Shown: positions 15,985-28,189 of the stretch, piece by piece
Position numbering within the stretch: the first letter of the stretch is position 1
Layout: each line of letters starts with the position of its first letter
Virus record (IMG/VR): IMGVR_UViG_3300043447_000028
Coordinates: 17,157-81,156 of that record
Length of the DNA: 64,000 nt
Reading direction: 5' to 3' (one strand)
Source of the DNA: a virus
Lineage: Duplodnaviria > Heunggongvirae > Uroviricota > Caudoviricetes
The notes under the pieces: model-generated
Told to the model about the DNA's origin: nothing
Seen by the model: only the letters and a program-made list of their open reading frames with translations
Databases searched by the model: none
Made by a program: the position numbers and the translations under genes

Positions 15985-18900
15985 ATGATCGATTTCAATA
16001 CCGAACCGTATAATGATGATTACGACGAGAACAAGAAGTTCTATCGTATTTTGTATCGCCCATCGTTTGCTGTTCAGGCTCGTGAACTCACACAAATGCA
16101 GACTATTCTGCAGAATCAGATTTCTCGCCATGGTGATGCAATTTTCAAACAAGGTGCGATGGTAATCCCTGGACAAGCATCTGTTGAGACTGTTACTCAG
16201 CCTGGAAAGGGAGCAGATTACGTTAAACTACAATCAAGTTATAACGGTGTTGCTGTTCAAACATTCGTTTCTGCTCTAAAGGGTATGACGATTGTAGGTT
16301 CTTCTGGTGTTACTGCTCAAGTTATTGTAGCCCAAGACGCTGAAAATACTGATCCAACTACATTGTATGTTCGCTATACAACAACTGGTTCTAACAACAC
16401 AACTCAGACATTCTCTAACTCTGAAGTTATCACAACTCTAGATGGTACATACTCTTTCCAAGCAGCAGCAAGCGATGCTGTAGGTAAAGGTTCTATTGCT
16501 ACAATCCAACGTGGTGTTTACTATGTTAACAACCACTTCTGTTTAGTTGAAGAACAAGCTATCGTTCTTGAGAAATATACTAATGACCCATCTTATCGTG
16601 TTGGTCTAACTGTAACTGAATCTATCGTCACTCCAGAAGAAGACGAAACACTACTTGACAATGCACAGAACAGCTATAACTTTGCTGCTCCAGGCGCTCA
16701 CCGTTACTACATCGATTTAACTTTATCTAAGTTAGCTATTGATTCTACATCAGACGAAAACTTTATTGAGCTGATCCGTGTTGTAGAAGGACGAATCAAA
16801 ACCATCGTCGACACTACTGCATACTCTCTATTGGGTGATGAACTTGCTCGCCGCACATATGATGAATCAGGCGATTATGTTGTTCGTGATTTTGCAATTG
16901 ATATTCGTGAACACCGCAACAATGATCGTGGTGTGTGGGTTCAGAATACTGCATATCTAACAGGCGACATTGTAACGAATGATGGCAACACTTATGTTGC
17001 CAAGTTATCAGGAACATCTGTTACTACTGCCCCAACACATACATCTGGTACTGCATATGACGGTCCAGGTTCTACTGGTATCAAGTGGGAGTTTAACTCT
17101 AAACCAGCATATAATCGTGGTATCTATAAAGACGGCTCTGAGTCTAAACTCGCTGTTGGTTTAGAACCAGGAAAGGCTTATGTTCGTGGCTACGAGATTC
17201 AGAAAGATTCTACAACATATGTTGAAGTAGATAAAGCACGTGCTTACGACCAAGCATTGAATAGCATTATCCAACCTACTGTTGGTAACTATGTGCTGGT
17301 GACAAACGTAAATAACCTACCTCCAATTGATACTTGCGAGATTATCTCTTTGAGAGATCAGGTAACAGGTTCTTCTACTGGTACTGCAGCAGGTGCTCAA
17401 GTTGGTACTGCTCGTGTTCGTTTTATGGAATGGCATTCTGGTGCTTTGTATGGTGCTACTGCTGTTTACAAACTAGGTCTGTTTGACATCCAGATGAACT
17501 CTGGTAAAGATTTCAACCGTAATGTCAAGTCGTTCTTCTATAATGTATCAAGTGCAGATCCTAACCTAAGTTTCAGTTCTGATATTAACCCAATTACAAC
17601 TCAATTGGTTGGTTCTGTTAGCGCTTCTACTACTTCACTAACTGGTGTTGGTACATCATTCCAAACTGACTTAGTTTCTGGCGATTATATCGTCGTTGAT
17701 GGTACTATGATTCGTGTCACTGGCACTCCATCTTCACAGAACGTAGTAACAATTACTTCTAGTTCATTCTCTGGCAAGGCATATTCTCTTGCAACTACAC
17801 AGATCCTAGAAGCAAACAATTCTAGTTTGGTATTCTCTTTACCAAACTACGCTATTCGTTCTGTTCGTGGTGCTGGAACTTCTGGTGTTAATAACACAAC
17901 TTATATCTGCTACCAAAAATTCACACAGACTGCTTCTGGCGTTACTGTTAACTTGTCTACATCTGGTACATTTGCATCTGCCTCTGGAGCTACAAACTAT
18001 ATCGTAGTAGACAATGATGCTACTTCTGGTGGTGCGATTATTAACCCAGTTTCTATTGTTCCAGTTGGTTCTACTTGTACTATTACTGTTCCAGCTGGTC
18101 AGTCTGGTCACTCTATTACAGTTATTGCTGCTATTATCCGTAATGGCTCTGGTTACGAAAAGACTAAAACTCTTACAACTGTCACTGAAACATTCACTAC
18201 AGCTGATGCTGCTCAGGCAGAAACTCTATACCTAGACAAAGCAGACGTATTCCGTATCGTTTCTATTAAGATGGCAACTGATGCGTTTGGCACATCACCA
18301 TCTTCTTACACTCAAGACATCTCTGATCGTTATGAGTTTGATAATGGTCAGCGTAGCACTCACTATGATTGGGGTCGTTTGAAACTTCTCCCATCATTCA
18401 CTGCTCCATCTAATCCAGTGCAAGTTATATACGAGTATTTCGAGCATGGTGTTGGTGATTATTTCGATATTAACTCTTATAGCAACGTAGACTACAACCA
18501 AGTCCCAGCAGTTCTTCGTGACTCTTTGGATTTCCGTCCACGTGTTGCTAATAAGTCTGCAGGTTCTGCTAAGAACTTTATCTCTACTGGTGGTTCTATC
18601 ACTGGTATTCCAAAGCGTGGAGAAAGTGTAACATCTGATTACAGCTATTACCTAGCACGTAAAGATAAGATCGCCCTTGACTTCAATGGTAAGTTCTTTG
18701 ATATCACAGGTGTTGCTTCTACTAATCCAGGCGAACCTCAAGATCCAGCGCTAGGTATGGTTCTATACACTCTAGAAATGGAACCATACACATTCTCTAC
18801 TGAGTCTATCCGCACTACAAAGATTGAGAACAAGCGTTACACAATGCGTGACATTGGTAAGCTAGAAACTCGTATTAACAACTTAGAATACTACACTTCT

Positions 18901-21900
18901 CTTTCTCTTCTAGAACAAGAAACACAATCTATGAAGATCACTACTTCTGGTGGTCTAGATCGTATGAAGAACGGTTTCGTTGTTGATAACTTCAGTGGTA
19001 ACAATATCGGTAATAGCAAGTCTAAAGACTACTACTGTGCTATCGATATGGAAAAGAATCAACTTCGTCCATACTACACATCTTATAATGCAAACTTGAT
19101 TGAGAAGAACTCTAACGCTGGACAGCGTGCTGCTTCTAACTATCAGTTGAACGGTGATATTATCACTCTTCCAATTATCGATACTCCAGTATTGATCAAA
19201 CAAGATTATGCTTCTCGTTTGGAAAATATCAACCCGTTCGCTATCTACACATTCTTAGGTAATGTGGAAATTAACCCACCTTCTGATGATTGGTTTGAGA
19301 CTGCTCGTATGCCAGATATCGTTCAGCAGGTAGAAGGTAACTACAATACAATTAAAGACCTAGCAACTCGTGCGGGCGTTATCGGTGATGCTGGTTTCGG
19401 TACTGTATGGGGTGCGTGGGAAACTGAATGGATGGGTACACCTTATTCTACTGGCACACAGTCATTCTCTGCAGATCGCCGCTCTGGTGATGGTGGTGCT
19501 GCATTAGACGCACAATTTGGTCTTGGACCAGAAGCACCTGGATGGGCTATCCGAACAGTTAAAGTAGAAAACTTTGCTCAAGCAGTTGGACAATCTCGCT
19601 CTGGTGTTAAAACAACTCTAGCAGTTAAGACTGACTATGAGACTGTTGCAGACCGCACAGTTTCTACTGCTGTTATTCCTTATATGCGCTCTAGAAACAT
19701 TCTGGTGCAGACTAAAGGTCTGAAACCGTCTACTCGTTTCTATGCTTACTTCGATGACGTGGACGTGAACGATTATGTTGTACCTTCTGTTAAGTTGGTA
19801 TATACTGCTGGTTCTGGAACATTTGATATTAGCACTAACGTAGGTGGTTCTGCTTCTGAAACTAAGCGTCGTATTAATGGCGATTCTCAAGTTTGTTTGA
19901 ACCGTGGTGATGTTATCTCTAACTCGCTAAACACTGCTTCTGGTGTTGTTATCGGCAAGTATACTGATCCAGATACTGGTGCGTTGACACTTGAATTAGC
20001 CAACGTAATTGGCACTTTCTCTAACGGACAAACATTCTCTGGTTCTGTTTCTGGCGCTTCTGGTACTGTTGTTTCTATTACAACACCTACTACTCTAATC
20101 ACAAACAAGAATGGTGATTTGAACTTCTTATTCACAATTCCAAACACAGAAGCTATCCACTTTCGCACTGGCGCTCGTGAGTTGAAACTTATCGATGCAT
20201 CTACTTCTACAGGACAGTGGACATCTCGTGGTCGTGGTATTTACCGTGCAGAAGGTGTTCTAGAAACTAAACAATCTACAGTGAACGCTGTTCGTAACGC
20301 TGAATTGGTTAAAGAAGTTGTTGGTCCAAACGACGATCCTGCTGGTCGTCAGACAATCTACCAAGGCGCAGGAAGCCGTATCGTTTCTGATACTGGTTGG
20401 TACGATCCACTTGCTCAATCTTTCTTGGTTGAACAAAAGGGTGGGGCATTCTTGACTAGCGTGGATATCTTCTTTGCTACAAAAGACGATCGTATTCCTG
20501 TAACATTGGAAATTCGTGAGATGGTTAATGGAACACCTGGAAAGAACGTGCTTGCGTTCAGCCGTGTTTCTCTAAAACCAGAACAAGTGAACTTGTCTTC
20601 TACTGTAGTTTCATTGGATGGTACTGAGTATCCAACTTACGACACTCCAACTAAGTTTACATTCACTACTCCAGTATATGTCCAAGACAATACTGAATAC
20701 TGCTTTGTTCTTCAGTCTGATTCTAACAACTATAAGTGCTGGATTTCTAACGTAGGCGATCAAATTCCTGGAACTTCTGGAAGAACTATCTCCAAGCAAC
20801 CTTATGCTGGTGTATTGTTCAAGTCTCAGAACGCATCTACTTGGACTGCTGACCAAAACCAAGACATTAAGTTTACAATCTACCGTGCTAAGTTTGATAC
20901 TAGCGTTGTTGGTAACATCAGCTTCGTTAATGACGTAGTACCATTCGACAATATTGAGAATGATCCATTCCAAGTTGTATCTGGTTCTACAACAGTTCGT
21001 GTATGGCACAACGACCATGGTATGTACTCTGGCTCTCGTGTAACTATCAAGGGTGTTGGTTCTGCTGTTAAGGGAATTCCAGCTGCTGAGTTGAATGGTG
21101 ACCATGTAATCGCAAACTGCGACGCTAACTGCTACACTATTACAACTGGCACTGCTGCTACTTCTAGTGGTTATGGTGGTGGTTCTGCAGTATATGCAAC
21201 TCGTAACATTACATACGATTTGATCAACCCATCTATTCAGATGCAGACTTTCTCTGACACTAAGTCTAGCTTCTCTATCTTGACATCTTCTGGTAAGTCT
21301 ATTGATGGCTCTCAAACTCCATATGTTCAAGATACAAGTTATACACCTTGCTTGATCAAACAGAACAATACATTTGGAACACCACGTGTTATCGCTTCTG
21401 AGATCAACGAGAATGTATTAATGGGTGGTAATAAGTCTGTTACATTTGCTGCACAGATTTCTACTACTAACGACTCTGTATCTCCAGTTATCGATACTGC
21501 TCGCACTAGCTTGGTTGCTATCTCTAATAAGATCAACCAACCTACAGAATCAAACACTAACGTGGCTGCTCTAGACGTTAAGTCTATTATTACTGGTTCT
21601 ACTGCTTGGTCATTCACTACAACTGGATTTAGTTCTACAAATGCTACTATCCGTGGTGCTATGGCTGCAATCGGTATCGGGCGTTATGTGACTATCTCTG
21701 GAACTGCAACTACTGCAGGAAACTTAGGTACATTCCTAGTTACTGGATTCACTGATGATGGCACAACTGCTACTATCACTTTAGATTCTGGATACGCTGG
21801 AACAGCTGAAACTGCTCTTTCTACAGTAACAGTTTCTCTTCGTGAGATGTTCTTTGATGCTATCACCCCAGAAGGTAACTCTGCTCTAGCTTCATATGTA

Positions 21901-22224
21901 ACTGTTCCTACTAAGTTTGCGAACTCTTCAACTTATCTCCGTGTTCGTATTGCTGCTAACATCCCTTCTGAGTCTAGCGTAGAGGTATATTACAAGACTT
22001 GCGTTGGCGACACTAAGCAACTGGCGACGACTAAATATACAAAGATGAATCCAGATTCTGCCATTGTTAAGGTAGAAAATGGTAATACTGCATTCTCAGA
22101 CATCGACTTCACTCTGAGTGGATTGACTCCGTTCGATGGATTAGTCGTTAAAATCGTTATGCTCTCTTCAAACAGTTGCGCTGTTCCAATTGTCAAAGAC
22201 TTGAGAATTATTGCTTGCCCGTAA
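15985..22224 (+). CDS. giant virion structural protein (2079 aa), probable baseplate/fibre-network or host-recognition component
   Basis: Uninterrupted 6240-nt ORF with RBS AAGAGTAAAAGA. Contains the APTHTSG...DG module (VTTAPTHTSGTAYDG) shared with the 858-aa protein. Ser/Thr/Gly/Val-rich beta composition typical of fibre/Ig-like arrays. Confidence 0.5.
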   Translation: MIDFNTEPYNDDYDENKKFYRILYRPSFAVQARELTQMQTILQNQISRHGDAIFKQGAMVIPGQASVETVTQPGKGADYVKLQSSYNGVAVQTFVSALKGMTIVGSSGVTAQVIVAQDAENTDPTTLYVRYTTTGSNNTTQTFSNSEVITTLDGTYSFQAAASDAVGKGSIATIQRGVYYVNNHFCLVEEQAIVLEKYTNDPSYRVGLTVTESIVTPEEDETLLDNAQNSYNFAAPGAHRYYIDLTLSKLAIDSTSDENFIELIRVVEGRIKTIVDTTAYSLLGDELARRTYDESGDYVVRDFAIDIREHRNNDRGVWVQNTAYLTGDIVTNDGNTYVAKLSGTSVTTAPTHTSGTAYDGPGSTGIKWEFNSKPAYNRGIYKDGSESKLAVGLEPGKAYVRGYEIQKDSTTYVEVDKARAYDQALNSIIQPTVGNYVLVTNVNNLPPIDTCEIISLRDQVTGSSTGTAAGAQVGTARVRFMEWHSGALYGATAVYKLGLFDIQMNSGKDFNRNVKSFFYNVSSADPNLSFSSDINPITTQLVGSVSASTTSLTGVGTSFQTDLVSGDYIVVDGTMIRVTGTPSSQNVVTITSSSFSGKAYSLATTQILEANNSSLVFSLPNYAIRSVRGAGTSGVNNTTYICYQKFTQTASGVTVNLSTSGTFASASGATNYIVVDNDATSGGAIINPVSIVPVGSTCTITVPAGQSGHSITVIAAIIRNGSGYEKTKTLTTVTETFTTADAAQAETLYLDKADVFRIVSIKMATDAFGTSPSSYTQDISDRYEFDNGQRSTHYDWGRLKLLPSFTAPSNPVQVIYEYFEHGVGDYFDINSYSNVDYNQVPAVLRDSLDFRPRVANKSAGSAKNFISTGGSITGIPKRGESVTSDYSYYLARKDKIALDFNGKFFDITGVASTNPGEPQDPALGMVLYTLEMEPYTFSTESIRTTKIENKRYTMRDIGKLETRINNLEYYTSLSLLEQETQSMKITTSGGLDRMKNGFVVDNFSGNNIGNSKSKDYYCAIDMEKNQLRPYYTSYNANLIEKNSNAGQRAASNYQLNGDIITLPIIDTPVLIKQDYASRLENINPFAIYTFLGNVEINPPSDDWFETARMPDIVQQVEGNYNTIKDLATRAGVIGDAGFGTVWGAWETEWMGTPYSTGTQSFSADRRSGDGGAALDAQFGLGPEAPGWAIRTVKVENFAQAVGQSRSGVKTTLAVKTDYETVADRTVSTAVIPYMRSRNILVQTKGLKPSTRFYAYFDDVDVNDYVVPSVKLVYTAGSGTFDISTNVGGSASETKRRINGDSQVCLNRGDVISNSLNTASGVVIGKYTDPDTGALTLELANVIGTFSNGQTFSGSVSGASGTVVSITTPTTLITNKNGDLNFLFTIPNTEAIHFRTGARELKLIDASTSTGQWTSRGRGIYRAEGVLETKQSTVNAVRNAELVKEVVGPNDDPAGRQTIYQGAGSRIVSDTGWYDPLAQSFLVEQKGGAFLTSVDIFFATKDDRIPVTLEIREMVNGTPGKNVLAFSRVSLKPEQVNLSSTVVSLDGTEYPTYDTPTKFTFTTPVYVQDNTEYCFVLQSDSNNYKCWISNVGDQIPGTSGRTISKQPYAGVLFKSQNASTWTADQNQDIKFTIYRAKFDTSVVGNISFVNDVVPFDNIENDPFQVVSGSTTVRVWHNDHGMYSGSRVTIKGVGSAVKGIPAAELNGDHVIANCDANCYTITTGTAATSSGYGGGSAVYATRNITYDLINPSIQMQTFSDTKSSFSILTSSGKSIDGSQTPYVQDTSYTPCLIKQNNTFGTPRVIASEINENVLMGGNKSVTFAAQISTTNDSVSPVIDTARTSLVAISNKINQPTESNTNVAALDVKSIITGSTAWSFTTTGFSSTNATIRGAMAAIGIGRYVTISGTATTAGNLGTFLVTGFTDDGTTATITLDSGYAGTAETALSTVTVSLREMFFDAITPEGNSALASYVTVPTKFANSSTYLRVRIAANIPSESSVEVYYKTCVGDTKQLATTKYTKMNPDSAIVKVENGNTAFSDIDFTLSGLTPFDGLVVKIVMLSSNSCAVPIVKDLRIIACP

Positions 22225-22451
22225 TGACTGATTTTTTGAAGGTTTTAGGACATAATGGCTTAGTTAGAGATACCTCTAGCGGAGCCATTATAAATACAAA
22301 CAGAACTGAGTATGATGAATATATGGCTCGTGTAAGGGAAGCTGAAGAGCGTGAAAACGCTATTTCTCAACATACGATTGAGATAAATAATATAAAGAAC
22401 GAATTGCAAGACATAAAATCGTTAATTCTTCAACTCTTGAACAAAGATTGA
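22224..22451 (+). CDS. small coiled-coil protein (possible fibre assembly/chaperone-like); start re-set to ATG overlapping the upstream stop
   Basis: The ORF track shows a 91-aa ORF from 22176; the in-frame ATG at 22224 overlaps the TAA of the giant gene (TAATG). C-terminal heptad-like region NNIKNELQDIKSLILQLL. Confidence 0.35.
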   Translation: MTDFLKVLGHNGLVRDTSSGAIINTNRTEYDEYMARVREAEERENAISQHTIEINNIKNELQDIKSLILQLLNKD

Positions 22452-22468: not shown

Positions 22469-23623
22469 ATGGCATCAGTTAGCGCTGCAACAATCACGAC
22501 TCGTGCTGGTAAGGGTAGTCCCCTAACCAACGCTGAAGTCGATGCAAACTTTAATAACTTAAATACACAACTCCAATTAGCCCAAACCGCTGCTAGCTAC
22601 ACTGCTGCAGACGTTCTAGCTAAGTTGGTTACTGTCGACGGATCTGGCTCTGGATTAGATGCCGACTTACTAGACGGTATGAATTCTGCCACAGCGAATA
22701 CGGTAAGCACAATTGTTGCTCGTGACGCTTCTGGTAACTTCTCTGCTGGTACTATTACCGCTACAGCTTTCTCTGGTACATTTAATGGTGTAGCAGGCAT
22801 TACTTCTGGTACTATTACTGGTATTACTGATTTGGCTATCGCTGATGGTGGTACTGGTTCTTCTACTGCAGCTGGGGCACGTACTGCTCTTGGTCTAGCG
22901 ATCGGTACTGATGTACAAGCCTATGACGCTGAACTTGCTGCGTTGGCTGGTGTAACATCTGCTGCAGATGCTCTTCCATACTTTACTGGTTCTGGTACTG
23001 CTTCTACTACTACTCTATCTTCATACGGTCGTACATTGATCGACGACGCTGATGCTGCTACTGCTCGTGGTACATTAGGTGTTCGTATCGGTACAGACGT
23101 TCAAGCGTACTCTGCTGAATTGACTGGTACTGCTGGTCTTTCTACTACTGGTATTATCATCCGTACTGGCGCTGGCACTAAGACAACTAGATCCCTAGCA
23201 GCTGGTGGTGGTATTTCTATCTCTAACGCTGATGGTACTGCGGGCAACCCAACTATTTCTGCTAACGTAACATCTGTTCAAGGTAACACTGGTGCTGTTA
23301 CAGTTTCTGTTCCAGTCACATCTGTTCAGGGTAGTACTGGTGCTGTTTCTGTTACCAACGTAACATATGCTGGTTTCGCTGGTTCTGCAGGTTATGCATC
23401 TTCTGCTGGTGGTGGTTGGCCAGGACACTTATCGCAGTTCGCTAACAACTTAGGTAACTACGGTTTCTTCGTTGATGGTGGTGGTGGTCGTGTTACTGGT
23501 AACTGTTACGGTAATGCATCACGTGGTGTTTACGGACAAGATACATCTTGGTATGATAACATCCGTCAAGGCACGAACATGGTAATGCGTCAACATAACT
23601 GCAATTGCGTTTGCAATTGCTAA
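22469..23623 (+). CDS. tail fibre protein with Phage_fiber-type repeats and a Cys-rich C-terminal tail
   Basis: 384 aa. Repeated [19 protein letters not shown] / [21 protein letters not shown] units. Tandem VTSVQG(N/S)TGAV repeats. The extreme C-terminus is HNCNCVCNC. Confidence 0.55.
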
Positions 23624-23636
23624 TTAGGGAACTATA

Positions 23637-24425
23637 ATGAAAATAGTAAAAACTATTATTAATAACCCATATTGGGGTTATGGGATTCACCACGAGGAAC
23701 CTTACATCCAACCTCATCTGTATATCGATATTCAATCAGAAAATCTGGAGATTAAGCTATATACACCTGCGACTGAAAATGTGCCAATGATTGTGCATTT
23801 GTGGCAAAAGCTGGCGTTGAGTACACTAAAGTCAATTCCAGGTTTTGTAGATCAAACTCTTTGGACTTCTTTAGAAAAAACTCCAATACCAGAAATAGAT
23901 GGTGAACAATCTTTCTACGAATTAAAGAATTCTGATTTAGTCGACATTTTGGGCAGAACCCTTGTTACTAAAAATGTAGGAAACGGGAATAATTCTGGAT
24001 TCAACAGAACACCATATGTATTGTATGTCGGTGATAGTTCTGGTGATTTTAATGACTTTACTATGGTTCTAAAGTTAAATGACCCAGAAGAATTTATTTT
24101 TGAAGGTCCATCAGCTTCTTCTATCACATCAGAAACTGTTGCATTTGCGAGCGATTTACTACCTAGCATTTCACTAACATCATCTCAAAATAGTGTCGGC
24201 GTAGATTCTAGTATAACAGTAGATGTTACTAGTGACCCTTCTGTTAAAGAAGTTTATCTAGAACAGGTATATGGAGTTTTGAATAAAACTCGTGTTCCTT
24301 TGACTAATGGTGTTGGTTCTTTCGTTATTTTAACTACTGGTCTTTCTGTTGGAGATATGGTTAGAGTTAAAGCTGGTCATAGAAAATATACTGGTATCAC
24401 AGATTTTAACATCACAGTATCTTAA
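23637..24425 (+). CDS. hypothetical protein, C-terminal beta-sandwich-like region
   Basis: 262-aa ORF immediately after the fibre gene. No motif recognised. Followed by a hairpin terminator. Confidence 0.35.
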   Translation: MKIVKTIINNPYWGYGIHHEEPYIQPHLYIDIQSENLEIKLYTPATENVPMIVHLWQKLALSTLKSIPGFVDQTLWTSLEKTPIPEIDGEQSFYELKNSDLVDILGRTLVTKNVGNGNNSGFNRTPYVLYVGDSSGDFNDFTMVLKLNDPEEFIFEGPSASSITSETVAFASDLLPSISLTSSQNSVGVDSSITVDVTSDPSVKEVYLEQVYGVLNKTRVPLTNGVGSFVILTTGLSVGDMVRVKAGHRKYTGITDFNITVS

Positions 24426-24446
24426 TTTTAATATGGATAAGTATGT

Positions 24447-24477
24447 TCTGGGGTCTAAGACCCCAGACTTCATTTTG
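24447..24477 (+). terminator. rho-independent terminator-like hairpin
   Basis: TCTGGGGTC-TAA-GACCCCAGA is a perfect 9-bp stem followed by CTTCATTTTG. It shares the CTGGGGT/ACCCCAG core with the hairpin at 31003. Confidence 0.45.
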
Positions 24478-24488
24478 AAAGGTATATA

Positions 24489-25865
24489 ATGGCAAACTTC
24501 ACACTAACTGTTTTACATCCAATAACACAAGATCGTAAAAAAGTTTTATACAATTCTTCTAATAGTACATTGGTGTGGGAAGATGGAACTCCAATAGTAA
24601 ACACTAAAGTAGATACATCGGAAAAACCACAATCAAAAATCCAACGTGGTAAAAAACCAAAGGTTGTTAAAATTCAGCTAGGGTTATCTTGTAATTTTGA
24701 GTGTGATTACTGTAACCAAAGATTCGTACCACACGCTGATTCTACTAATCCAGATGACATAGATCCATTTGTAAATAACATGTCACAGTGGTTTGATGGA
24801 GGTGATGATGGGTTGGGATCTAATAGATCTTTTGAGTTCTGGGGTGGAGAGCCTCTAGTGTATTGGAAAACTCTAAAACCACTAGCAGAAAAAATTCACA
24901 CTAAGTATCCACACGCTGAACTATCTGTGATTACAAACGGAAGCCTACTTGATAAAGAAAAGGTTGATTGGTTTGATTTATTAAATTTCAGCGTATCAGT
25001 TTCACATGATGGACCAGGACAATATGTTCGTGGACCAGATCCACTACAAGATGAAGTTTCCAAAGAAGGTATAATCTATGCTTATAGGAAGCTAGCAACT
25101 CGTGGTAAGATGTCATTCAACTCTATGGTGAATAATAAAAATACCAGTAGAGGTGCTATTGAACAGTTCTTCGTGGATTTTGTTGAAAAGAATATCGGTT
25201 CTCAATATCTACAATATTTGTATATCGGTGAGGGCACTTTTATCGATGCATATGATGAGGGTGGTCTAGGTAATTCTTTAATGGAAGATGATGCTCACAT
25301 AAAATTTAGAGCTGATACGTTCACTGAGTTGCGTAGTTCTAAAGTTAGTAGATTCATAACCATTCACGATAAAGTCGCTAACTTTATCAATGCGTTAGAA
25401 AATGGCAAGAGATCTGAGACTATCTCCCAGAAATGTGGGATGGATTTACAAGAAAACATGGCTATTGATTTAATGGGTAATGTTCTAACTTGCCAGAATG
25501 TTTCTACAGTATCCACTAACCCTTCTGGCATCTCTCACCATATCGGGCATGTGTCAGATTTAGAAAATGTGGAAGTTGCAACTGGAACTCACTGGAGTGA
25601 TCGTAAAGAATGCCCGAACTGTCCAGTATTACATATTTGCAAGGGAGCATGCTTTTTCCTAACTGGTCCACTATGGGAAGCCACTTGCGACAATTCATAT
25701 AGCGATAACATCGTTATGTTCTCTGCAGCCATCGAGATGCTAACAGGGCATATCCCGATTTATATCGATGGACCTCTAAGGGAAGATCGAAAGGATATTT
25801 TCTGGGCTATTAATGGTAAGCCAGAAAAGTCTAGTAAAAAGATTATACCGATCGTTTCCGTATGA
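24489..25865 (+). CDS. radical SAM enzyme with C-terminal SPASM domain (anSME/PqqE/sactisynthase-like maturase)
   Basis: 458 aa. CNFECDYC (Cx3Cx2C) at aa 68-75. FWGGEPL glycine-rich SAM motif. ITNGSLL. C-terminal ECPNCPVLHICKGAC is Cx2Cx5Cx3C, the SPASM hallmark, with further upstream Cys at CGMDL / LTCQN. Confidence 0.8.
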   Translation: MANFTLTVLHPITQDRKKVLYNSSNSTLVWEDGTPIVNTKVDTSEKPQSKIQRGKKPKVVKIQLGLSCNFECDYCNQRFVPHADSTNPDDIDPFVNNMSQWFDGGDDGLGSNRSFEFWGGEPLVYWKTLKPLAEKIHTKYPHAELSVITNGSLLDKEKVDWFDLLNFSVSVSHDGPGQYVRGPDPLQDEVSKEGIIYAYRKLATRGKMSFNSMVNNKNTSRGAIEQFFVDFVEKNIGSQYLQYLYIGEGTFIDAYDEGGLGNSLMEDDAHIKFRADTFTELRSSKVSRFITIHDKVANFINALENGKRSETISQKCGMDLQENMAIDLMGNVLTCQNVSTVSTNPSGISHHIGHVSDLENVEVATGTHWSDRKECPNCPVLHICKGACFFLTGPLWEATCDNSYSDNIVMFSAAIEMLTGHIPIYIDGPLREDRKDIFWAINGKPEKSSKKIIPIVSV

Positions 25866-26161
25866 GTTCATTTATTAAAGACTGGTTGATAGAGATCAAC
25901 CAATACCCTAGATCTGAGAGTGGGGATACTTTTTCTATTAAAGACTATTTTTACTATGATTCTAATGTCCAAGAATATGGATACAGAGACATAGTAATAC
26001 CCTTATCTACTGTCCTAAATAAAGAAGAAGTCCCAGATAAAGAGACCATACAGATTCTTATAAATAGTAAAATACCTATCATCAGAAGAGTGATAGACCT
26101 AAATAAACAAGAGGAAAGTTGGATTTTCGACACCAACGTATTAAAGGAAATTAAGAAATGA
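25862..26161 (+). CDS. small Tyr/acid-rich protein, translationally coupled to the rSAM-SPASM gene (candidate substrate or RRE-like partner)
   Basis: 99 aa with ATGA overlap at both ends (25862-25865 and 26158-26161). Contains no Cys. Aromatic/acidic cluster DYFYYDSNVQEYGYRD. Confidence 0.45.
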   Translation: MSSFIKDWLIEINQYPRSESGDTFSIKDYFYYDSNVQEYGYRDIVIPLSTVLNKEEVPDKETIQILINSKIPIIRRVIDLNKQEESWIFDTNVLKEIKK

Positions 26162-27102
26162 CTAAACATGTAAAATGGGTTATCGCCCACGAGCCAATCG
26201 GTTTGTTTTTGAAAGTCGCAGAACGATTCGCTAAAGAAGTGAATGAGAAAACTGATGGTGCGTTTGACATCGAGGTTCTTTCTCTTTCTGATTACTCTAC
26301 AAAGTATAATGGCGGTAAAGCTATCACCAAGCACGATCTATTGAACTTGATCGATACTGGCGTTATTGAGATGAGCCACATCTACTCTAACTGGTTGGGC
26401 GATTACAATAAAGACTTGCACGCATTAGACCTACCATTCTTGTTCTCTGACCACGACCACGTTGATCGTGTTCTAGAAGGTGAAATTGGTAAAGAACTAT
26501 TGGCTGGTGTTGCTGCTAAGAGCAACGTACAGGGTCTAGCATTTACATACTCTGGTGGTTACAAGATCGTTCCAGCTAAGAAGGCTATTACTAAAGTTGA
26601 AGACTTCCAAGGTTTGGATATCCGTACTAGCAAGAGCCCAGTATGTATGGAGATTTTCTCTACATTAGGTGCAACTCCAAATCAATCTATTGATATCGAA
26701 CACTTGACTGAAGCTGGTAAAGCTGGTCTAGTTGATGGTGGTGAATCTACATACGTTCGTGTGTTCCCATTGAATCAGACTGAAGCGTTTGGTTACATCA
26801 ATGAAACTAACCACAACCTATTGTTGACAAGCATTATCGTTAACAAAGAATGGATGTCTCAGTTTGATGAAGAAACTCAACAAATTCTATCTGATGCAGC
26901 ATTCGTTGCAGCACGTCAAGAACGTCGTGAGTCTGTTGCTGATGTTCCAGGGATCATCGCTGAGTTCCAATCAAAGGGTGTTGAATTGGTAACTATGTCT
27001 GCTGAAGAAAAAGCTAAATTTGTTGATGCTACTTCTAAGGTATACGATAAGTTTGCCGACTACTTCACTCCAGGTCTAGTTCAGAAAATTCAACTACACT
27101 AA
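26158..27102 (+). CDS. TRAP-transporter solute-binding protein (DctP/SiaP family) homolog lacking a signal peptide
   Basis: 314 aa. AERFAKEVNEKTDGAFDIEVLSLSDYS, LDLPFLFSDHDHVDRVLEGEIGKELL, GLDIRTSKSPVCMEIFSTLGATP and LVDGGESTY align block-by-block with DctP/SiaP motifs (AEMFAKEVKEKSQGKIEI.., FALPYV.., GLKLRVPN.., AVDGQENP). N-terminus MTKHVKWVIAHEP has no hydrophobic leader. Confidence 0.7.
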   Translation: MTKHVKWVIAHEPIGLFLKVAERFAKEVNEKTDGAFDIEVLSLSDYSTKYNGGKAITKHDLLNLIDTGVIEMSHIYSNWLGDYNKDLHALDLPFLFSDHDHVDRVLEGEIGKELLAGVAAKSNVQGLAFTYSGGYKIVPAKKAITKVEDFQGLDIRTSKSPVCMEIFSTLGATPNQSIDIEHLTEAGKAGLVDGGESTYVRVFPLNQTEAFGYINETNHNLLLTSIIVNKEWMSQFDEETQQILSDAAFVAARQERRESVADVPGIIAEFQSKGVELVTMSAEEKAKFVDATSKVYDKFADYFTPGLVQKIQLH

Positions 27103-27120
27103 TTTGAAGTGATAAATACA

Positions 27121-27147
27121 AGGGAGCTTCGGCTCCCTTTTCATTTA
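27121..27147 (+). terminator. rho-independent terminator
   Basis: AGGGAGC-UUCG-GCUCCCU, a 7-bp GC-rich stem with UUCG tetraloop, followed by UUUUCAUUU. Confidence 0.6.
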
Positions 27148-27157
27148 TAAGGATATT

Positions 27158-28189
27158 ATGTCAATTTTATATTATAACCCGCATGCAGTTTCTAAAATAC
27201 TGAACAACGATAGACAAGTGTTAGAGAACACTCCATTTATAGTCGGCAGAAGAGAAACTTTCGAACAATATGAAAAATTTGGTCTAAACAAATACAATGC
27301 TGTTTATGATAGGACTGGGAATCTACCCCACTTTCTAGATATGAAACACGGCGAACATCCAATACCACTGTATGACGCTGATTACAATAGATCTTTTTAT
27401 GATATATCTGTAGAGAGAGCCAAACAACTACTATCTTTAGATCAGCCGATTAATGTTTTGTGGTCTGGTGGTATTGATAGCACTTATATTTTATTCATGT
27501 TACATGAGTTAGCCAATGATAAAGATCAGATAAGAGTCCTTGGTACATACAACTCTGTTATAGAATCTGGTGATGTATTCGACACTAAGATTAAAAATAC
27601 ATTTAGACACAATATAAGAGTCTCTTCTAGAAACGACAACAGTTTTGTCGGAGAAGGGATCTTTGTTAGTGGTATGTGTGGTAATCAGCTATTCGGTCCA
27701 ACTGATGATATGTTCGCAACTGGTGGTACTGCGATGTTTCACCACACTCTTGGAACTCCAGAAACAATATACGAACCATATCAGGGTAATGTTAGAGAAG
27801 ATTTATTAGAATTTTTACACCCAATCATTAGCACTAGCTCTAAGAAAATTGAAACCATTGCTGATCTTAGATGGTATTGTATCTTTAACCTAGACTGGTA
27901 CACTGCAATCTACGAACACAAGATAATGCAACCACCAGAAATAATGAGCAGAATCCATGGGTTCTTCGATCATGTAGATTTTCAAACTTGGGCAGTTAAC
28001 ACCAAGGAGCCATTCACTAAGATTAGAGGGAATTCTAATACACATAGATGGCAGATGAGACAGGTTCTTTCAGAGTCTTTCGGGCTAAATCACTACGCTG
28101 AAAATAAACCTAAAAAGATCTCCACTTTCTGTGTACATAACCCAGAGTGGATCTTCCTGCTGGATAATTACCAGAACATCTACTTGTAA
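27158..28189 (+). CDS. PP-loop (N-type) ATP pyrophosphatase superfamily protein
   Basis: 343 aa. VLWSGGIDSTYILFML is the SGGxDS PP-loop, located about 100 aa from the N-terminus. No glutaminase domain. Family membership beyond PP-loop not resolved. Confidence 0.55.
   Translation: MSILYYNPHAVSKILNNDRQVLENTPFIVGRRETFEQYEKFGLNKYNAVYDRTGNLPHFLDMKHGEHPIPLYDADYNRSFYDISVERAKQLLSLDQPINVLWSGGIDSTYILFMLHELANDKDQIRVLGTYNSVIESGDVFDTKIKNTFRHNIRVSSRNDNSFVGEGIFVSGMCGNQLFGPTDDMFATGGTAMFHHTLGTPETIYEPYQGNVREDLLEFLHPIISTSSKKIETIADLRWYCIFNLDWYTAIYEHKIMQPPEIMSRIHGFFDHVDFQTWAVNTKEPFTKIRGNSNTHRWQMRQVLSESFGLNHYAENKPKKISTFCVHNPEWIFLLDNYQNIYL

Follow-up and report, generated by a model that had tools for sequence, protein, structure and literature searches.

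A candidate radical-SAM maturase for the cysteine-asparagine C-terminus of phage tail fibres

Several enzymes combining a radical S-adenosylmethionine (SAM) core with a SPASM domain join a cysteine sulfur to a side-chain carbon of Asp, Glu or Asn by a thioether. QhpD, which acts on QhpC in maturing the gamma-subunit of quinohemoprotein amine dehydrogenase, the PapB ranthipeptide maturases and NxxcB belong to this group, and Asn and Asp are acceptor residues of the known Cys thioether-forming systems (NxxC peptides, ranthipeptides and QhpC). The anaerobic sulfatase-maturating enzymes (anSME/AtsB, structures 4K36-4K39) are seven-Cys SPASM enzymes that modify a Cys of a full-length protein, the sulfatase target motif being C/S-x-P/A-x-R. 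Tail fibres possess C-terminal devices of their own at the hypervariable trimeric tip, such as Peptidase_S74-type domains and the HxH iron sites of T4 gp37, with small helper genes downstream (gp38/gp57); we know of no radical-SAM enzyme in any of these folding systems. To our knowledge, no radical-SAM enzyme has been described that cross-links or otherwise modifies a phage tail fibre post-translationally, and full-text literature searches returned no prior description of a fibre modified in this manner. The present work concerns a radical-SAM/SPASM enzyme gene (hereafter rSAM) and a tail-fibre gene located in the window, a 64,000 nt stretch of an uncultivated T4-like phage (IMG/VR record IMGVR_UViG_3300043447_000028, positions 17,157 to 81,156); all positions given below are window positions. 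In sequence comparisons, the rSAM family and (N/D-C)n repeats at protein C-termini were found to be reciprocally coupled independently of phage lineage, and the enzyme is proposed as a maturase of the fibre end.

The source is an aquatic T4-like myovirus of an uncultivated lineage: its capsid protein is ~62% identical to those of P-TIM40, S-CREM1 and Melnitz (cyanophage and Melnitz-type T4-likes), and no near-identical DNA to the window was found among deposited phages. The features at the center of the analysis are the following.

22469..23623, + strand: tail-fibre gene, 384 aa, assigned through PHROG tail-fibre families, proposed rSAM substrate
23597..23620, + strand: Cys-Asn tail N-C-N-C-V-C-N-C followed by the stop codon, read from the sequence, putative rSAM core peptide
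23637..24425, + strand: p262 gene, 262 aa, between the fibre and rSAM genes, defined by homologues in related loci
24447..24467, + strand: hairpin of 9 bp (6 GC), -15.9 kcal/mol, then a T-rich run, from a fold/terminator scan
24489..25865, + strand: radical-SAM/SPASM enzyme gene, 458 aa, identified by family profiles and motifs, proposed fibre-tail maturase
24690-24713, + strand: stretch coding for the rSAM Cx3Cx2C motif
about 25434-25688, + strand: stretch coding for the rSAM SPASM domain

The fibre terminates in ...HNCNCVCNC* and is composed of a conserved shaft (residues 1-300), a hypervariable tip (~300-376) and a near-invariant C-terminal tail. The shaft columns show a conservation of 0.65-0.86 among 32 homologues, those of the tip 0.37-0.40 and those of the last 4 residues 0.93. 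In the 107 unique tails collected from related loci, the 395 positions lying between cysteines are occupied by Asn (293), Asp (40), Ala (33) or other residues (29), Asn or Asp thus accounting for 84%, and the last Cys is the final residue of the protein in 70 of them. Since an inverted repeat, GCAATTGC...GCAATTGC, was flagged at 23601-23620, the conserved feature could in principle be a DNA or RNA element, the palindromic AATTGC repeats serving as hairpin, terminator or recombination site. The codon usage speaks otherwise: AAC and AAT for Asn and TGC and TGT for Cys are all employed, in proportions that track genome GC from ~0.3 to 0.7, and conservation extends to both the reading frame and the place of the stop codon. 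As synonymous Asn and Cys codons vary with genome GC, selection acts on the peptide. Together with the frame test reported below, these data refute a DNA-level palindrome as the explanation of the tail and reduce its probability to a negligible value.

The coupling was examined in the forward direction with 55 IMG/VR viral loci containing rSAM relatives (54-74% identity) and 80 bacterial-genome loci, the latter being mostly prophage-like regions of freshwater Burkholderiales (Limnohabitans, Polynucleobacter) with some Alphaproteobacteria. All 40 fibre homologues located beside rSAM in the viral loci end in (N)CxCNC*, and the tail is retained there on unrelated carriers as well, namely proteins of 752 and 317 aa and, in locus L051, three tandem 87-aa proteins. 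For the bacterial loci offering at least 3 kb of upstream sequence, a tail was scored when a same-strand open reading frame (ORF) displayed an (N/D-C)n run at most 4 residues from its end; such an ORF is present in 49 of 55 loci, and four of the six exceptions carry longer variants of the motif. The chance level can be appreciated from the occurrence of tails on 3 of 1,929 antisense ORFs vs 100 of 2,351 sense ORFs. In the reverse direction, viral contigs were scanned for DNA encoding NCNCNC-stop, and a match was counted as a true end if it closed an ORF of 60 codons or more and was followed by 3 kb or more of sequence. A member of the rSAM family lies within 7 kb downstream of 30 of the 35 true NCNCNC* ends, whereas none was found near the 55 out-of-frame matches to the same DNA pattern. 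Among fibres with a homologous shaft, 7 possess both tail and rSAM, 32 possess neither and 0 are discordant (Fisher p = 6.5e-8, for loci that are not phylogenetically independent). After removal of their last 25 residues, the carriers fall into at least five groups mutually unrelated by BLAST. The phage types involved differ as well and comprise T4-like phages, RSP15, whose record is placed in Ackermannviridae, and JWF/2-1, whose tail genes are of lambda-J type. The initial annotation of this DNA had raised the idea of a virion-protein maturation system, which fits these comparative data very well; the Cys-rich fibre end, noted there in passing, proved to be the key. Three or four separate rSAM-tail cassettes per genome were also observed in several Burkholderiales genomes or metagenome-assembled genomes (L070, L071, L087 and L116 in one of the latter; L061, L072, L098 and L115 in another), which points to use of the system by several prophages, or by tailocin-like elements.

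A tblastn search brought up rSAM homologues of 42-48% identity in three deposited phages (RSP15 of Ralstonia, JWF and 2-1 of Achromobacter), each time with a tail-fibre gene just 5' of the homologue. The initial statement that no structural module of this composition had been described holds in the sources searched, with the reservation that an rSAM gene beside a fibre gene was already present, unremarked, in these three genomes. One cyanophage paper mentions an rSAM maturase, but the gene that it treats as an 'antibiotic synthesis' gene is an unrelated one. The RSP15 fibre ends in ...NTNCQCGN*. In JWF and 2-1, the sequence NCNCDCNC(NC)SC is directly joined to a Hint-type sequence, CFPAGT..., and the JWF record annotates the motif-bearing protein as a 'Hom_end-associated Hint family protein'. 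The same fusion of an internal Cys-Asn motif (NCSC followed by FPAGT) occurs at L002:4847-6298, L003:4808-6250 and L118:5733-7262, which correspond to JWF, 2-1 and a locus of Burkholderia paludis MSh1. Autocleavage at a Hint-type sequence placed directly after the internal motif would expose the motif as a C-terminus; the arrangement would imply either that the motif is exposed by autoproteolysis or that thioester chemistry takes place where the two sequences join. As a separate observation, the 2,079-aa structural protein encoded 5' of the window fibre (15985-22224) is 31% identical over 683 aa to the giant RSP15 ORF044 (L001:8388-13235), which lies just downstream of the RSP15 rSAM gene; the synteny of these unrelated phages therefore reaches beyond the fibre-rSAM pair.

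The explanation proposed for these data can be summarized as follows. The rSAM protein would be a maturase dedicated to the fibre, whose gene lies two genes upstream, and would act on the extreme C-terminal repeat NCNCVCNC*. The two proteins would behave like a precursor-maturase pair of the peptides that are made by ribosomes and modified after translation (RiPPs), the role of 'core peptide' falling to the final 6-12 residues of a structural protein of the virion. The chemistry would consist of thioether cross-links between Cys sulfur and Asn or Asp carbon, as in ranthipeptides, NxxC peptides and QhpC, and the thioethers could brace or staple the trimeric fibre tip, possibly as inter-chain links in a parallel trimer. 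That rSAM acts on the fibre tail appears highly probable from the comparative evidence; the thioether nature of the product is more tentative, with odds somewhat short of even. For the best explanation overall, a RiPP-like radical-SAM maturation of the fibre tip in which thioether formation is the chemistry held most likely, a probability of about 0.62 is estimated from the sequence data.

The identity of the enzyme itself is well established. The motifs C68x3C72x2C75, WGGEP (118-122) and TNG (149-151) are all found, together with a complete seven-Cys SPASM signature (C316...G330x4C335, C375x2C378x5C384x3C388 and C400). An alignment of 10 sequences extending down to 41% identity shows no variation in the cluster cysteines, the SPASM cysteines and G330, GGEP or TNG, so that the radical-SAM/SPASM call of the initial annotation is borne out and the motifs are not degenerate. 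The Cx3Cx2C and GGE-type motifs, both invariant, place the protein in the radical SAM superfamily, and a score of 30.5 bits against TIGR04085 (cutoff 27) places it among SPASM proteins; Pfam Fer4_12 gives 23.2 bits (cutoff 22), Pfam Radical_SAM 28.1, slightly below its cutoff of 29.5, and PHROG 1802 matches at 1e-60. The homologues form 2,806 sequence clusters, and no informative name is found among the best 120 of these. The closest solved structure by sequence profile is 8VPO (4e-17), and the anSME entries 4k36-4k39 (1e-10) are also among the nearest. 8VPO is an RS-SPASM enzyme cited in a paper on radical SAM cyclopropyl synthases (PMC10878394); citations of it were found in two papers, which deal with the maturation of RiPPs by RS-SPASM enzymes and with RiPP recognition elements. 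The resemblance is mainly confined to the radical SAM core and the substrate motif differs; the match begins at 8VPO residue 82 vs position 30 of the profile, the N-terminal region of the rSAM family being therefore much shorter.

The assignment to a particular family was less straightforward. The best scores against characterised families are 57 bits for DynA, 56 for anSME and 53 for PapB, with cutoffs of 340-450. Compared individually, rSAM obtains 53 vs 340 bits for PapB and 43 vs 453 for QhpD, and neither a leader peptide nor a RiPP recognition element was detected. The cassette seems to work like the SPASM maturases of proteins and peptides while scoring under all their family cutoffs. 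The likeness to QhpD, PapB and NxxcB, the last being listed among cross-link-forming RiPP radical-SAM families, lies in the NCNC sequence with its overlapping N-x-x-C units and in the fact that QhpC is a protein subunit and not an exported peptide; the substrate differs in being a virion fibre. An anSME accompanied by its sulfatase was rejected, given 55.9 bits against TIGR03942 (cutoff 349.45) and no sulfatase-like ORF in the cassette. A reading as the QueE/QueC pair of 7-deazaguanine synthesis, in which a non-SPASM radical-SAM enzyme goes with a PP-loop enzyme, was discarded on family scores and context. A viperin-like defence function was likewise abandoned: in PADLOC, rSAM matches the pVip models via the generic core only (48.7 bits, residues 60-219), and the other four proteins of the cassette match none of the PADLOC models.

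An action of rSAM on the tail with a different chemistry, such as anSME-like oxidation of Cys to formylglycine, by which the tip would gain a reactive aldehyde, MftC-like oxidative decarboxylation of the C-terminal Cys, epimerisation or a C-C cross-link, has nevertheless to be weighed. The anSME are among the best family and structure matches (TIGR03942 at 3.7e-15, besides the structures mentioned above), the GenBank record of JWF calls its homologue an 'anaerobic sulfatase-maturating enzyme', and the terminal C-N-C with its strict C-terminal place, often ending at the last Cys, would suit a chemistry requiring a free C-terminus. However, the anSME model score is far below its cutoff, the C/S-x-P/A-x-R motif is absent from the Cys-Asn tails of viral and bacterial-genome loci, and the target here is a C-terminal repeat of a fibre. 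The strong preference for Asn or Asp between the cysteines moreover makes better sense with these residues as participants in the reaction, as they would be in thioether formation. Another chemistry at the same target is consequently regarded as unlikely.

The gene located between the fibre and the enzyme deserves particular attention. Homologues of p262 come after the tail-bearing gene in 78 loci. Their N-terminal half is variable, while the C-terminal domain (...VKAGxK.Y.G) is conserved, is shared by RSP15 ORF047 and is possibly immunoglobulin (Ig)-like; the Big_1/Invasin_D3 Ig-like Pfam matches are weak and concern 3 of 21 members, the p262 profile has no sequence match in the PDB, and no Cys, Tyr or Trp is invariant. 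The similarity of p262 co-varies with that of the tip (rho 0.48) and of rSAM (0.44) and less with that of the shaft (0.22). Overall, the tip, p262 and rSAM display mutual rho values of 0.44-0.48, to be compared with 0.22-0.26 against the shaft and 0.08-0.09 against the upstream gene, which fits a cassette exchanged as a unit. We propose that p262 would be a co-inherited third component, which may assist the hypervariable tip as a chaperone or adaptor or may itself form part of the tip.

These same properties can be read differently: the tail would have only a structural role, as a zipper of metal-bound or disulfide-linked cysteines at the three-fold axis that may be compared with the HxH iron sites of T4 gp37, while rSAM would modify p262, another virion protein or a small molecule and the linkage would reflect a co-inherited tip cassette. 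Alternating residues in a beta-strand would place all cysteines on one face, His-rich runs (HHHH) occur just before the tail in several relatives, and p262 is nearly as constant a neighbour as the tail, the tip, p262 and rSAM moving as one recombination unit. Against this, what persists through changes of carrier and of intervening genes is the tail and not p262: gp29 of JWF bears no relation to p262, loci L121 and L051 use small carrier proteins, and p262 has no invariant residue of the kinds listed above. Cassette inheritance alone would also leave unexplained the occurrence of at least five unrelated carrier bodies and of unrelated phage types, with 0 discordant fibres. A passive zipper is accordingly held to be rather improbable. 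The His-rich runs themselves (e.g. HLDTNHHFDPHHHHNNCTNCNCNC) stand directly before the Cys-Asn tail in the fibres of L013, L017, L025, L028, L030 and L031, and we take them to recall the HxH metal sites of the gp37 needle.

A comparison with other fibre ends is instructive for the proposed maturation of the tip. In the close shaft relatives L362 and L363, the tail is replaced by an ending of the form ...LLIEAIKE...LEKLEN which, by reading and not by a family scan, resembles the intramolecular-chaperone (Peptidase_S74-type) end of a fibre. This resemblance suggests that the tail/rSAM cassette may be an alternative solution for the fibre C-terminus, in which case the tail might do the job of the C-terminal intramolecular chaperone domain of related fibres. 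The difference from the described folding aids would reside in the helper set, which here includes an Fe-S radical enzyme.

Between p262 and rSAM, a stable hairpin is found 3' of p262 in 27 of the 29 distinct testable intergenic regions, with differing stem sequences; the first hairpin is therefore a conserved feature. It is terminator-like and would represent a terminator or attenuator separating structural from enzyme genes, probably setting a lower expression for the latter. Terminator-like sites number 8 in the region vs 3.5 +/- 1.9 in shuffled sequences. The initial annotation had defined a terminator-bounded unit consisting of rSAM, p99 and a solute-binding protein (SBP) homologue, followed by a PP-loop enzyme gene (PP). 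Its four-gene anatomy, ATGA overlaps and two hairpins were all retrieved at the same coordinates in the ORF table and by reading of the sequence, but the grouping into this unit is not supported, as the constant partners of rSAM, the fibre tail and p262, are both located upstream of the first hairpin and beyond the interval initially delimited. T4-late-promoter-like motifs of the form TATAAATA or ATAAATA overlap or directly precede the conserved hairpin in several relatives (window 24430-24470; p262-rSAM gaps of L005, L016, L019, L022, L029, L039 and L052), and exact TATAAATA sites are located in the window at 22289, 26059 (within p99) and 28207 (5' of a 111-aa gene).

The three genes located downstream of rSAM, hereafter the trio, comprise the following features.

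25862..26161, + strand: p99 gene, 99 aa, first of the optional trio
26158..27102, + strand: gene of a signal-less DctP/TRAP-type SBP homologue, 314 aa, identified with Pfam DctP
26623-26625, + strand: codon of SBP R156, the conserved Arg of a G-x-x-I/V-R strand
27120..27139, no strand assigned: symmetric hairpin of 8 bp, -15.3 kcal/mol, between the SBP and PP genes, terminator-like on both strands
27158..28189, + strand: PP gene, 343 aa, stand-alone asparagine-synthetase-B-type domain
27464-27481, + strand: stretch coding for the PP-loop SGGIDS

The ATGA stop/start overlaps at 25862 (GTATGAGT) and 26158 (AAATGACT) link rSAM, p99 and SBP. The trio is present in 11 of the 20 distinct close relatives whose p262-to-p111 interval is fully covered; two of the others retain PP only and seven have nothing at this place. 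Over 100 rSAM loci have neither p99 nor SBP, among them all 80 from bacterial genomes, where one distant PP homologue was found. Conversely, rSAM, p262 and the tail are all absent within 8 kb of the trio in about 15 loci from ~3 lineages. In such loci (L178:6768-9732, also L174-L177, L180 and L193), ORFs reading as IscU and IscA directly follow the trio, ORFs reading as NrdA, NrdB and glutaredoxin are located 5' of it and an Hsp70 (DnaK/HscA-like) gene lies further 3', these identities being read from translations and not from family scans. By profile scan, PP and p99 were found to recur within the rSAM cassette in no fewer than five gene orders; they are duplicated in some cases, and 2-oxoglutarate (2OG) oxygenases and cupin-like proteins accompany them. 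A distant PP homologue stands in a Polynucleobacter prophage beside a 131-aa Cys/Asn-rich protein and rSAM. The trio is best described as a separable accessory module which, judging from this distribution, the core system can do without and which may have a role of its own; the claim that rSAM, p99, SBP and PP form a single system is not supported by these observations. A link between the trio and the type of tail was also sought and not found, near-identical tails (...CQVGAxCNCNCNC) being found with the trio in L016 and L035 and without it in L022 and L029. A small predicted membrane protein (...VVTWRI.V..TNFFGGW.ASGNPWVGLGV.SFALVVNS...) is encoded directly 5' of p99 or PP at L178:6527-6790 and L202:7769-8020.

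The individual members of the trio were characterised as follows. The Tyr-rich character initially attributed to p99 is modest, with 6 Tyr in 99 residues, clustered at 29-41. Its model is a confidently folded alpha/beta domain (pLDDT, the predicted local distance difference test score, of 86.5), its sequence is conserved over the whole length, and a comparison of the predicted fold with known structures yielded no relative. The SBP protein matches Pfam DctP end to end (3.8e-51, 174.5 bits), scores 128.8 against NF037995 (cutoff 50) and 135 against TIGR00787 (cutoff 175), and has 4xfe and 4p47 as relatives in the PDB. As in the SBPs of tripartite ATP-independent periplasmic (TRAP) transporters, the homology is full-length and the conserved Arg is kept: R156, which we take to be the equivalent of the ligand-carboxylate-binding Arg of TRAP SBPs, is retained in 36 of 38 homologues. 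Unlike these, the protein starts 4 residues before the first conserved strand and therefore has no signal peptide, a feature equally absent from the other phage homologues examined, and no ORF for the membrane subunits DctQ/DctM was found in its neighbourhood. A working TRAP subunit was rejected on these grounds, and SBP is presumably a cytoplasmic ligand-binding protein and not part of a transporter. Its database matches are restricted to very short, mostly unannotated records or mis-filed bacterial contigs. The PP family comprises 150 clusters, with no match in the deposited phage collection for the window gene, and its motif S103-G-G-x-D-S108 is invariant in 27 homologues. The AsnB class to which it is related includes AsnB, beta-lactam synthetase, carbapenam synthetase and TsnB9, and lasso-peptide cyclases also belong among these synthetase domains. 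PP differs from them in scoring 15.7 bits against Pfam Asn_synthase (cutoff 21) and in its lack of the N-terminal glutaminase domain, which sets it apart from the glutamine-dependent AsnB enzymes. It is predicted from its sequence to be an ATP-dependent carboxylate-adenylating, amide-forming enzyme, and the trio looks like a carboxylate-binding protein, a carboxylate-adenylating amide synthetase and a small partner. These proteins may add an ATP-dependent amide-forming step on a carboxylate of the tail, either the terminal one or that of an Asp, or may instead act on a small molecule; their participation in the same pathway as rSAM is judged just under an even chance.

The initial annotation could also be developed into a pathway in which rSAM, a Tyr-rich precursor p99, SBP and PP make a small molecule or free modified peptide loosely tied to adsorption; in such a scheme, SBP would bind a carboxylate substrate and PP would ligate it. 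The ATGA couplings, the recurrence of PP and p99 beside rSAM in varied gene orders and in the distant prophage, and the beta-lactam and carbapenam synthetases of the PP enzyme class are in its favor. It is contradicted by the rSAM loci that dispense with p99 and SBP, by the close relatives that lack the trio, by the trio loci devoid of rSAM and by p99 itself, which is folded and conserved throughout, unlike a leader-core precursor. Such a pathway appears very unlikely.

Further genes of potential relevance to the maturation of the tail are inserted in the same cassette in other lineages. 2OG-Fe(II) oxygenases scoring above the cutoff of PF13759, a family common in aquatic phages, are encoded between p262 and rSAM or beside rSAM (L088:6155-7993, L109, L172:11254-11901 and L202:4464-5201), and may be Asn/Asp hydroxylases acting on the same tail. 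Cupin-like proteins were recognised by motif reading only: a protein of ~215 aa with a His-rich motif follows a distant PP homologue in a Polynucleobacter prophage (L121:11657-12298) and in an AT-rich phage contig (L202:7036-7689). At L051:3799-7998, the three tandem ~87-aa proteins share their N-terminus (MSVILGNGIVTFGDGTVQTT...), differ in their C-terminal halves and each end in NCNCNC*; two p262-like paralogues, three 2OG-Fe(II) oxygenase genes and rSAM come next. This locus has the appearance of a RiPP cluster with several precursors, assembled from fibre-tip modules, and the insertion of varied tailoring enzymes in one cassette may be compared, by analogy, with the behaviour of RiPP clusters.

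A number of points weigh against a RiPP-like maturation of the fibre tip by rSAM. The link between the enzyme and the tail is purely comparative and was drawn from phylogenetically non-independent loci. The hairpin parts the fibre and p262 from rSAM, so that co-transcription is not required. The RSP15 tail, NCQCGN*, is degenerate, and two bacterial-genome loci, L080 and L087, as well as 5 of the 35 reverse-test tails, show no partner in the stretch of sequence available. Since rSAM scores far under the cutoffs of every characterised SPASM family, homology cannot fix its chemistry. Its N-terminal region before the cluster motif is only ~60 residues long, no recognisable RiPP recognition element was found, and the p99 fold matches none known. 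The alternating cysteines at the trimer axis could simply bind metal or form disulfides. As far as the trio is concerned, many phages that carry rSAM do not have it, and it is at times located well away from any rSAM.

Taken at its broadest, the proposal is that of a widespread, hitherto unrecognised class of receptor-binding fibres, in phages and prophages, whose tips would be covalently matured by a dedicated radical-SAM/SPASM enzyme on a terminal (N/D-C)n tag, in other words RiPP chemistry applied to a virion protein. The product may be inter-chain thioether staples replacing an intramolecular chaperone, and the tag would be decorated by 2OG oxygenases, by AsnB-type ligases with a cytoplasmic DctP-like partner and possibly by cupin-like proteins. 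This generalization is put forward tentatively, the odds being somewhat against it in its complete form. The enzyme-fibre pair is present in three cultured phages (RSP15 of Ralstonia, JWF and 2-1 of Achromobacter), and the proposal is therefore open to direct test.

If true, the proposal would add a new protein-level substrate class and a new core motif to those of SPASM enzymes, for a family that exceeds 2,800 clusters, and would provide a portable pair made of a C-terminal tag and its enzyme, of possible use in protein engineering. It would give a functional context to the signal-less TRAP-SBP homologue, to an orphan AsnB-like enzyme and to the 2OG oxygenases of aquatic phages, with a first function for some of these enigmatic oxygenase genes. 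For the phages themselves, it would reveal a new way to build or stabilise the part of the virion that decides host range.

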